Origin: a virus
DNA: 64,000 nucleotides
Virus record (IMG/VR): IMGVR_UViG_3300019776_000213
Location: 1-64,000 of that record
Direction: 5' to 3' (one strand)
Shown: one piece after another, positions 177 through 2,952 of the stretch
Layout of the letters: the number at the start of each line of letters is the position of its first letter
Numbering within the stretch: the stretch's first letter is position 1
The notes under the pieces: model-generated
The model's input: only the letters and a program-made list of their open reading frames with translations
Database searches by the model: none
What the model was told of the DNA's origin: nothing
Program-made: the position numbers and the translations under genes

Positions 177-557
177 ATGACAAAGTGGATTATCATATTC
201 TATCTCCTCCTTCCACTCTCAGCCAAAGCATCCTCAGATCTCCATTGCAAAGCCTATATGCTTATGAGAGAAACCAATGGCACAAAGAGCATTAAGATGC
301 AAAGAGCTGTGCTAAATGTCTTGCATAATCGTATGAGAAAGTTTAATATGTCAGCTTGTAAAGTAATTCACATGAATGGGCAATTTCCTTATATGGTGAA
401 TGGATTAAAGCCTGTTAGTAATTATTGGTTGACACATGCTGAAAAATTGAGCAGAATGACTCCCTTGCTTGATAGAGACTATTTATACTTCAATACTGTG
501 AAGCATAAGTGGGGAAAAGAGCAATTGAAAGTGGGAACTATGTGGTTTTCTAAGTAA
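177..557 (+). CDS. Secreted SleB/Hydrolase_2-like cell wall hydrolase
   Basis: Signal peptide, then LHCKAYMLMRE..AVLNVLHNR..ACKVIHMNGQF, matching the Hydrolase_2 pattern CLA...E...AV..VI.NR..C.V....QF. Confidence 0.7.
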   Translation: MTKWIIIFYLLLPLSAKASSDLHCKAYMLMRETNGTKSIKMQRAVLNVLHNRMRKFNMSACKVIHMNGQFPYMVNGLKPVSNYWLTHAEKLSRMTPLLDRDYLYFNTVKHKWGKEQLKVGTMWFSK

Positions 558-573
558 TTAATTAAAGGAGAGA

Positions 574-894
574 ATGATGTTAAATGAGTATGTGAAGAAT
601 AATAGGTCTGATAACGGTAAACACAGCGGCTTTCGTTTTGTGAAGAAAGTTGTATGTGCTGATGGATTTACTATGTCTGTACAAGCAAGTGAAATACACT
701 ACTGTGCTCCAAGAGAAAATGACGCTGAATATTATTCAGAAGTTGAAATTGGATTTCCAAGTATGGCAGATCCTCTGATTGAACAATATGCAGAAGACTT
801 AGAAAATTTAACTGATACAGTGTATGGTTATGTTCCAGTAGAGATTGTTGAGCAAGTTATTTTAAAACATGGTGGAATTAAGGAGAATGTATAA
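574..894 (+). CDS. Hypothetical phage protein
   Basis: 106-aa ORF with AAGGAGA SD. Confidence 0.7.
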   Translation: MMLNEYVKNNRSDNGKHSGFRFVKKVVCADGFTMSVQASEIHYCAPRENDAEYYSEVEIGFPSMADPLIEQYAEDLENLTDTVYGYVPVEIVEQVILKHGGIKENV

Positions 895-1115
895 TGCAAA
901 AATTTACTAAAGAGCAAGCTATTGTCATTACAGGACTTACTGGAGTCACTGCTTGTGACTTCTCAAGTTTTCATGAAGATGTTGAAAAACGTTTAGGTTA
1001 TCCTATTTGGACTCATCAGTTTGCTGATGAAGCATTTGTAGAGAAAGTGAAACAAGCTTACAAGGATGATTTTATTGCCATGTGCTACTCAGAAAAGGAG
1101 AATGAAAATGTTTAA
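894..1115 (+). CDS. Hypothetical phage protein
   Basis: TAATG coupling, AAGGAGA SD. Confidence 0.7.
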   Translation: MQKFTKEQAIVITGLTGVTACDFSSFHEDVEKRLGYPIWTHQFADEAFVEKVKQAYKDDFIAMCYSEKENENV

Positions 1116-1434: not shown

Positions 1435-1637
1435 TGTGGAAAAGTCAATGTATATAGATGCTATTATGGTACATGGTTGGAAATCTTGGGATTTTGCAGA
1501 AAAGTATCAAAGACTTGGGTTAATGGTAAATTTAGGCAATCAAATGGGTGCAGAGTTTAAATGGCTCAGGTTTAAGCTAGAGACTCTTTCAGAAGACCAA
1601 TTGAAAGATATTTATAAAGAACTTAAAGGAGAATAAT

Positions 1638-2090
1638 ATGAATGTATTTAAATATGTATTTCTGAAGTTGAAAGAGTTGTTTTCTGATAAGGATGAAACA
1701 GTCGAGTATAAATATCTTAATGACACTACTAAAGAAGTAAACACAACGGCATATCTGTTATCATCAGAGGCTAACAAAGAACGTTTGCTTAAGTCTGTAA
1801 GTCAATTGAAAGATACTAAACAACACAATGGAAAGTGTAGTCGTATACACTATTCACCTATCGGTTCAACTGTCCACATTCCGATTGAAGAAACCGTAGA
1901 CGTATATCCAGCTTCTCTGGCAGAGAATGACAAAAAGCCTAAACGAGAGTACAACCGAGCTACAAAGCAACAAGTATCACGAATTAAAGTATTAGTAGGA
2001 CGTGGAAAGAATACAAAAGCTATTGCAAAAGATGTAGGATTGCCGTATGATAATGTGAATTATTATGTGAAGAAGTTTTCTGAGGAATAA
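1638..2090 (+). CDS. Protein with YefM-like antitoxin segment and C-terminal HTH
   Basis: TAYLLSSEANKERLLKSVSQLK resembles the YefM C-terminus; GKNTKAIAKDVGLPYDNVNYYVK is HTH-like. Confidence 0.6.
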   Translation: MNVFKYVFLKLKELFSDKDETVEYKYLNDTTKEVNTTAYLLSSEANKERLLKSVSQLKDTKQHNGKCSRIHYSPIGSTVHIPIEETVDVYPASLAENDKKPKREYNRATKQQVSRIKVLVGRGKNTKAIAKDVGLPYDNVNYYVKKFSEE

Positions 2091-2760: not shown

Positions 2761-2952
2761 ATGACAGAAAATGTGTATTATGTTTTACTAGGAGAAGAAG
2801 CCAAATGGTATGATGAAGGTATGATTGCCTTTGACCAAGGACAAGATTATTACTCATGTCCATACGCTGATGGAACAATTGAGAAGAGTTATTGGCAAAC
2901 TGGATATGCTGAAGCTAAGAATGATCCAATTGTAGAACAAATTGGAGTATGA
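2761..2952 (+). CDS. Ribosome modulation factor (Rmf)-like small protein
   Basis: EG..AF..G.....CPY.......W..GY.EA pattern as in Rmf. Confidence 0.5.
   Translation: MTENVYYVLLGEEAKWYDEGMIAFDQGQDYYSCPYADGTIEKSYWQTGYAEAKNDPIVEQIGV

Follow-up and report, generated by a model that had tools for sequence, protein, structure and literature searches.

We begin by considering YefM, the antitoxin of the YefM-YoeB and Axe-Txe type II systems (structures: 2A6Q and that of the S. aureus complex), because a part of it provides the closest match to the phage protein that is described here. In the structures of S. aureus YoeB-YefM, YefM's C-terminal domain wraps YoeB. The hydrophobic contacts to the toxin are made by T51, Y53, L54, L64, I68 and L71; E50, which is highly conserved, forms a salt bridge to YoeB, and strand beta4 of YefM (residues 77-83) pairs with strand beta1 of YoeB (PMC7544224). 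The residue numbering of this complex coincides with that of E. coli YefM, for which the toxin interface is said in a review to begin at residue 51 (PMC7354431). The YoeB/Txe family of toxins is widespread in bacteria (PMC11980606).

The phage protein, P0001, shares with YefM an ungapped match of 25 residues in a tail-like disordered region. Unlike YefM, it has no N-terminal dimerisation and DNA-binding domain, no counterpart of E50, P58, G74 or beta4, and no cognate toxin gene. The order of the parts differs as well, since the matching stretch lies in the middle of P0001 and is followed by a C-terminal helix-turn-helix (HTH) as the DNA-binding domain, whereas the DNA-binding domain of YefM is N-terminal.

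Phages are known to carry substitutes for antitoxins. These include Dmd of T4 (acting against RnlA and LsoA), the AdfN NADAR orphan antitoxins (against DarT1), a DarG mimic of ICP1 and the pseudo-ToxI RNA of phiTE (PMC10286901, PMC11825919, bioRxiv 10.1101/2023.12.14.571748). All four resemble the role that we propose for P0001, in that a replacement antitoxin is supplied by a phage that carries no toxin of its own. They are, however, whole proteins, enzymes or RNAs with demonstrated activity, whereas P0001 holds only a putative 25-residue binding helix of a type II antitoxin inside another protein. In layout, a similar case is V. cholerae HigA2, where a flexible toxin-binding segment is followed by an HTH DNA-binding domain (PMC5416850). 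Antitoxins of the HigA2 type are encoded beside their toxin, unlike P0001, and between the two we see no sequence relation.

The gene, its neighbours and its protein family

The window analysed here covers the first 64 kb of an IMG/VR virus record that is complete at 79,766 bp and has direct terminal repeats. The gene for P0001 (Table 1) is located in a long, dense run of small plus-strand genes. The stop codon of the upstream ORF occupies positions 1634-1636, one base before the ATG of P0001, so that the two genes are tightly packed in one plus-strand run. The ATG at 1638 can be fixed as the start because the N-terminus MNVFKY is common to 12/12 homologs. Directly upstream of the gene, neither a sigma-70-like promoter nor a terminator was found. 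From the position of the gene we infer that P0001 is an early product of the replication-side gene block. The GC content is about 31-36% across the region, which is phage-like, and there is no compositional anomaly at the YefM-like segment, so that a recent transfer is unsupported.

Table 1. Positions of the P0001 gene and its parts in the 64-kb window
Feature	Positions (nt)	Strand	Description
Shine-Dalgarno AAGGAG	1626-1631	+	6 nt before ATG 1638; read from the sequence
Whole gene P0001	1638-2090	+	150 aa; stop codon counted in the coordinates
N-terminal amphipathic helix, residues 1-15	1638-1682	+	8-11/15 identical to homologs; AF2 helix 3-15
Hypervariable middle, residues 16-98	1683-1931	+	4-15/83 identical, many gaps; mostly disordered (predicted)
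YefM-like stretch	1740-1820	+	residues 35-61 = YefM 49-75: end of alpha3, turn, alpha4 (toxin-binding part)
Basic stretch and three-helix HTH, residues 99-150	1932-2087	+	40-44/50 identical to homologs

Three of the small genes nearby can be compared with known families. The 63-aa ORF at 2761-2952 (+) matches the Pfam family RMF (ribosome modulation factor) with 28.5 bits against a cut-off of 27.9, and an RMF-like phage protein could hibernate host ribosomes; when 401 genomes from the class to which an E. coli genome belongs are searched with this ORF, only three marginal matches result. In the 126-aa ORF at 177-557 (+) the N-terminus is hydrophobic, and there is a weak likeness to the cell-wall hydrolase family Hydrolase_2 (SleB type; 25.8 bits, cut-off 27); this ORF is located among the small genes of the left end and not among the late genes. 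The 73-aa ORF at 894-1115 (+) clearly belongs to DUF7736 (phrog_13999; E 2.7e-16 and 1.2e-32), a conserved phage protein without known function.

Among 5.8 billion protein clusters we find 12 homologs of P0001 (P0002-P0013), all from metagenome assemblies and one of them on a 79.5-kb contig. Together with P0001 they are a small unnamed phage family, in which a helix conserved at the N-terminus is followed by a hypervariable middle, with a length of about 33 to 95 residues, and by a conserved C-terminal HTH. The AF2 model of P0001 with the family alignment (mean pLDDT 64) follows the same division. The N-terminal part has a pLDDT of about 79 for residues 1-10 and of 64 for residues 11-20, the middle falls to about 40-54, and residues 61-109 are disordered. 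In the middle, the YefM-like stretch is drawn as one continuous low-confidence helix from residue 35 to 60 (pLDDT 43-54), not as a helix-turn-helix. The three helices of the C-terminal domain (110-121, 126-133 and 137-148) have pLDDT values of 91-96, and this bundle bears out the HTH-like tail noted in the preliminary description. Its scores stay below the cut-offs of the HTH families (GerE 11.9 versus 23.5 bits, MerR_1 15.7 versus 21.6, HTH_24 14.0 versus 21.9), and a Foldseek search returns matches of the NarL/GerE, IstA and Cbp1 types with a best E of 0.34. The C-terminal domain, as modelled, is a three-helix HTH without an assignable subfamily.

Does the YefM likeness belong to the family or to P0001? 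Between the middle of P0001 and the middle of each homolog there is no significant local alignment (shuffle p 0.2-0.97, above 0.19 in every case), a YefM profile scores none of the 12 homologs above -0.7 bits, and no other antitoxin family is matched in them. An ancestral YefM likeness in the family is rejected, as the middle of P0001 is not detectably homologous to those of the others. With a linker that is hypervariable throughout the family, the YefM-like stretch is best described as a private insertion or replacement in the linker of P0001. The middles of P0002-P0013 fall into a few unrelated cassette types, which mostly end in a proline-rich LPPKEKDP...RW motif before the HTH; this motif is absent from P0001. 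The linker of the family appears to be exchanged as a block.

The virus itself stands apart. No close DNA relatives were found among cultured phages, a tblastn search of P0001 against phages gave only noise (E 3), and the IMG/VR and JGI metagenomes gave pattern matches without a true relative of the family, nor one of the downstream neighbour. By its terminase, the nearest IMG/VR relative is a 77.9-kb phage with 56% identity, which carries no homolog of the P0001 family; the closest cultured phages by the large terminase are Pseudomonas Pakpunaviruses, at 38% identity only. For the stretch alone, a word-based search with residues 26-70 among the 5.8 billion clusters returned only the query itself, and an exhaustive HMMER search with residues 24-80 among 1.84 billion representatives returned nothing beyond the query and some repeat-rich proteins that have no relation to YefM. 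As a singleton, present in one genome only, the stretch provides no evidence of purifying selection.

The YefM-like stretch

The letters of residues 37-58 (nt 1746-1811) are as the preliminary description gave them, and the E. coli motif that it named is exact, corresponding to residues 51-72 of K-12 YefM. With yefM taken from NC_000913.3 and translated, residues 37-61 of P0001 align without gaps to residues 51-75 of E. coli K-12 YefM, with 14/25 identities and a pairwise BLASTP E of 3e-6. The best match of the whole protein is NF008499, the NCBIfam equivalog model for YoeB-partnered YefM, with E 2.8e-4 for the whole of P0001 and 3.3e-5 for the excised segment, covering profile positions 47-77 of 83. 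The phage family phrog_10078, which is recognised as the YefM family from its match to E. coli YefM (E 2e-32), matches residues 34-63 with E 1e-3. A custom YefM HMM, built from 65 distinct YefM sequences of bacterial genomes that are 48-100% identical to E. coli YefM, gives 22.5 bits and aligns profile positions 48-78 with residues 34-64, and hhalign against a 26-sequence YefM alignment gives a probability of 91% with E 1e-6 over 26 columns.

The question that comes with a match of this length is whether an amphipathic helix could resemble YefM by chance, with no shared origin. Just 25-30 residues match. A single-sequence search of the PDB places YefM (2A6Q) at E 0.59, behind two unrelated ribosomal proteins that match the same stretch; the generic Pfam model PF02604, scanned with the segment alone, gives E 0.077 (13.2 bits against a cut-off of 29.8). 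A look-elsewhere correction for all families and all of the roughly 100 proteins of the window leaves the YefM match at about E 0.03 per window, and very many windows were scanned. A search of the ESM Atlas with residues 28-70 returned no usable feature match, and its structure matches are single helices to which we give no weight. Against a chance origin, the 22.5 bits of the custom HMM stand well apart from the highest score among 20,000 shuffles of P0001 (11.6 bits). When the window is cut from stop to stop in all six frames into 914 pieces of at least 30 aa, this stretch is the sole match (22.3 bits, E 4e-6), with the runner-up at 3.5. Besides the hhalign probability, three YefM profiles that were built independently of one another place the stretch in the same register, and the identities sit on near-invariant columns of YefM. 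We regard a chance likeness as improbable, and it is quite likely that P0001 and YefM are truly related, by descent or by close mimicry. Judged by the profiles, the likeness is specific to the YoeB-partnered type of YefM, as NF008499 gives far lower E values than PF02604 with its 0.077.

The match includes the toxin-binding motif of the Phd/YefM family (YefM 51-75) and starts at YefM residue 51, where the toxin interface starts. All six hydrophobic YoeB-contact positions are kept in P0001 (T51, Y53, L54, L64, I68 and L71, with V in place of I68). In comparison with the 65 YefM sequences, the kept columns are T51, A52, Y53, L54, L55, S57, A59, N60, R63, L64, S67, L71, K72 and K75. On the side of the losses, 4 of the roughly 14 invariant or near-invariant columns are changed in the stretch (E50, P58, A61 and G74), with T36, E44 and T60 standing in place of E50 (65/65 sequences), P58 (65/65) and G74 (62/65). 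The YefM flanks 41-50 and 76-83 have, in the column map of the 65 sequences, no recognisable likeness in P0001, and nothing similar to beta4 is present, the corresponding part of P0001 falling in the disordered region of the AF2 model; a strand-forming stretch of another sequence is conceivable. The putative binding helix, as read from the alignment, has an intact hydrophobic face and is missing the salt-bridge residue, the proline of the alpha3/alpha4 turn and beta4. Either a binder that is weaker or altered or a fragment in decay would fit this pattern.

A decaying fragment would be expected if the linker of an HTH regulator had taken up a piece of yefM by illegitimate recombination, and the piece were now a functionless relic in a spacer of a protein that only binds DNA. 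The losses just listed and the unrecognisable flanks favour such a relic, and so does the singleton status of the stretch. The family middles, which differ fully in length and sequence between conserved ends, also suggest a weakly constrained spacer. On the other side, the part that survives is exactly the toxin-contact helix, with every hydrophobic contact position in place. The phage-like GC content indicates that the piece was probably not captured recently, and even so its identity to YefM is 56%. We consider a relic somewhat unlikely.

As a whole, P0001 is not a bona fide Phd/YefM antitoxin, and this assignment is rejected. The beta-alpha-alpha-beta-beta dimerisation and DNA-binding domain of YefM (residues 1-40) is absent; in agreement with the preliminary description, which had reported this N-terminus missing, no profile position before 47 is matched, and where the domain would be expected the AF2 model has the helix 3-15 followed by disorder. 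The NF008499 score of 20.9-23.9 bits is far from the cut-off of 121, the invariant residues are incomplete and there is no toxin neighbour. P0001 may still work like a YefM tail.

The preliminary description had also stated that no toxin gene is adjacent. This holds for the ten neighbouring ORFs, none of which matches a toxin family, and it extends to the complete 79.8-kb genome, in which we find no match to PF06769 (YoeB), PF05016 (ParE/RelE) or the full PF02604 (Phd/YefM). P0001 is an antitoxin-like element in a phage without a toxin gene, as is characteristic of orphan antitoxins. Could the partner be a phage toxin that escapes recognition, for example a neighbouring small ORF, so that the HTH autoregulates a hybrid type II module in which the DNA-binding domain has been swapped? 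MqsA is an antitoxin of the same layout, with the toxin-binding part ahead of a C-terminal HTH. HigA2 of V. cholerae (PMC5416850) likewise represents the antitoxins in which a disordered toxin-binding part precedes such a domain. P0001 is tightly packed with small ORFs without known function. Arguing the other way, a RelE/ParE/YoeB-like gene is found nowhere in the genome, the neighbours match no toxin family, and other members of the family keep the same ends without a YefM-like stretch. To our knowledge, YefM-type tails bind only toxins of the YoeB/Txe/RelK type. A partner encoded by the phage is very unlikely.

YefM tails without a toxin in Pakpunaviruses

Is there a YefM tail of this kind in other phages? 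A tblastn search with residues 48-83 of E. coli YefM against 50,697 phage records matched 100 records of Pseudomonas phages. Among the matches listed, the top one is an annotated YefM and the rest are lytic phages of about 88-95 kb, including named Pakpunaviruses. In phage PAK_P2 the match lies inside gp045 (YP_008857085.1; NC_022967.1, 30211-30867), a hypothetical protein of 218 aa that occurs in about 99 phage records and corresponds to phrog_7101, a group of unknown function. Its residues 114-145 correspond to YefM 50-81, which comprises alpha4 and beta4, with P58 and G74 kept; the BLASTP E against E. coli YefM is 1e-8 and the custom HMM gives 29.5 bits. No Pfam domain and no N-terminal domain of YefM are found in gp045, and the PAK_P2 genome is without YoeB. 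Our literature search found no paper on a protein of the gp045 type.

Like P0001, gp045, which comes from a lytic phage, is a phage protein without the toxin, and it contains an internal segment that resembles only the tail of YefM. Its gene is part of a row of small genes that lie upstream of the primase/helicase gene, a setting comparable to that of P0001. Within the motif the two proteins have 11/20 residues identical. The copy in gp045 is the fuller one, as it keeps a beta4-like strand and, besides P58 and G74, an acidic residue at position 50, unlike P0001. Outside this segment gp045 shows no relation to P0001, and an HTH cannot be recognised in it. At least one further lineage of lytic phages has segments of this kind, in which the YefM tail alone, without the toxin, is embedded in a larger protein. 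This recurrence speaks against a functionless relic in P0001. The Pakpunavirus precedent raises the prior for a function of P0001 and proves nothing about P0001 itself.

A candidate orphan binder of YoeB-type toxins

The explanation that we prefer, with a probability of roughly 35-40%, is that the YefM-derived helix makes P0001 an orphan binder that neutralises a YoeB-type toxin of the host. The middle of P0001 would hold a piece that is descended from, or closely copies, YefM 51-75, that is, the last turn of alpha3 together with alpha4. After production of the protein from the replication-side gene block, the disordered YefM-like helix would fold onto the concave face of the beta-sheet of a host ribosome-dependent mRNA interferase of the YoeB/Txe/RelK type. 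The contacts to the toxin would be those of the YefM hydrophobic positions T51, Y53, L54, L64, I68 and L71. Once the labile antitoxin of the host decays after infection, P0001 would cover the active site, and translation would continue for the phage. In favour of toxin binding, the region that contains the stretch is predicted to be disordered, like the tail of YefM before it binds the toxin, and S57, N60, R63 and S67 are kept besides the hydrophobic contacts. The preliminary description had interpreted the segment as an orphan antitoxin mimic that neutralises host YoeB/Txe-type RNases as anti-defence. Its observation is confirmed and its descriptive parts are all right; its interpretation is partly supported, with the action against YoeB a putative one that is drawn from the likeness of the two sequences.

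A protein that carries a YefM-like tail could act in a different manner, as a decoy that mimics the Lon-labile part of the antitoxin, competes for the protease and slows the decay of antitoxins generally. A phage protein that inhibits Lon is known in Gp4.5 of T7. A review describes YefM as Lon-labile and its tail as disordered (PMC4803016). There is no evidence, however, for YefM 51-75 as a Lon degron, and we regard a protease decoy as highly improbable.

The binding of a host YoeB-type toxin by P0001, which we favour, can be extended to a broader proposal. Short toxin-binding peptides of type II antitoxins would be cut out by phages and grafted into unrelated proteins, at places that are disordered. 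The hypervariable middle of the HTH protein in this clade of phages of about 80 kb would then be a display site, in P0001 for YefM alpha4 against YoeB/Txe, and the Pakpunavirus proteins of the gp045 type would be an independent and experimentally tractable case of the same strategy. As a general rule for phages this grafting is doubtful at present. The tails through which type II antitoxins act are short and disordered, and they are difficult to recognise in sequence searches (PMC11825919). Our literature search found no report of a phage mimic of the YefM tail and none that YefM-YoeB protects against phage.

If a tail fragment of 25 residues suffices to block a YoeB-type RNase, antitoxin mimicry of the size of a peptide could be common in phage genomes and overlooked. 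The neutralisation of a YoeB-type toxin by such a phage protein, if true, would support, indirectly, an anti-phage role of YefM-YoeB modules. For mimicry of the YefM tail, the Pakpunavirus protein provides a cultured system, with laboratory strains of P. aeruginosa and phages such as PAK_P2 and PaP1.
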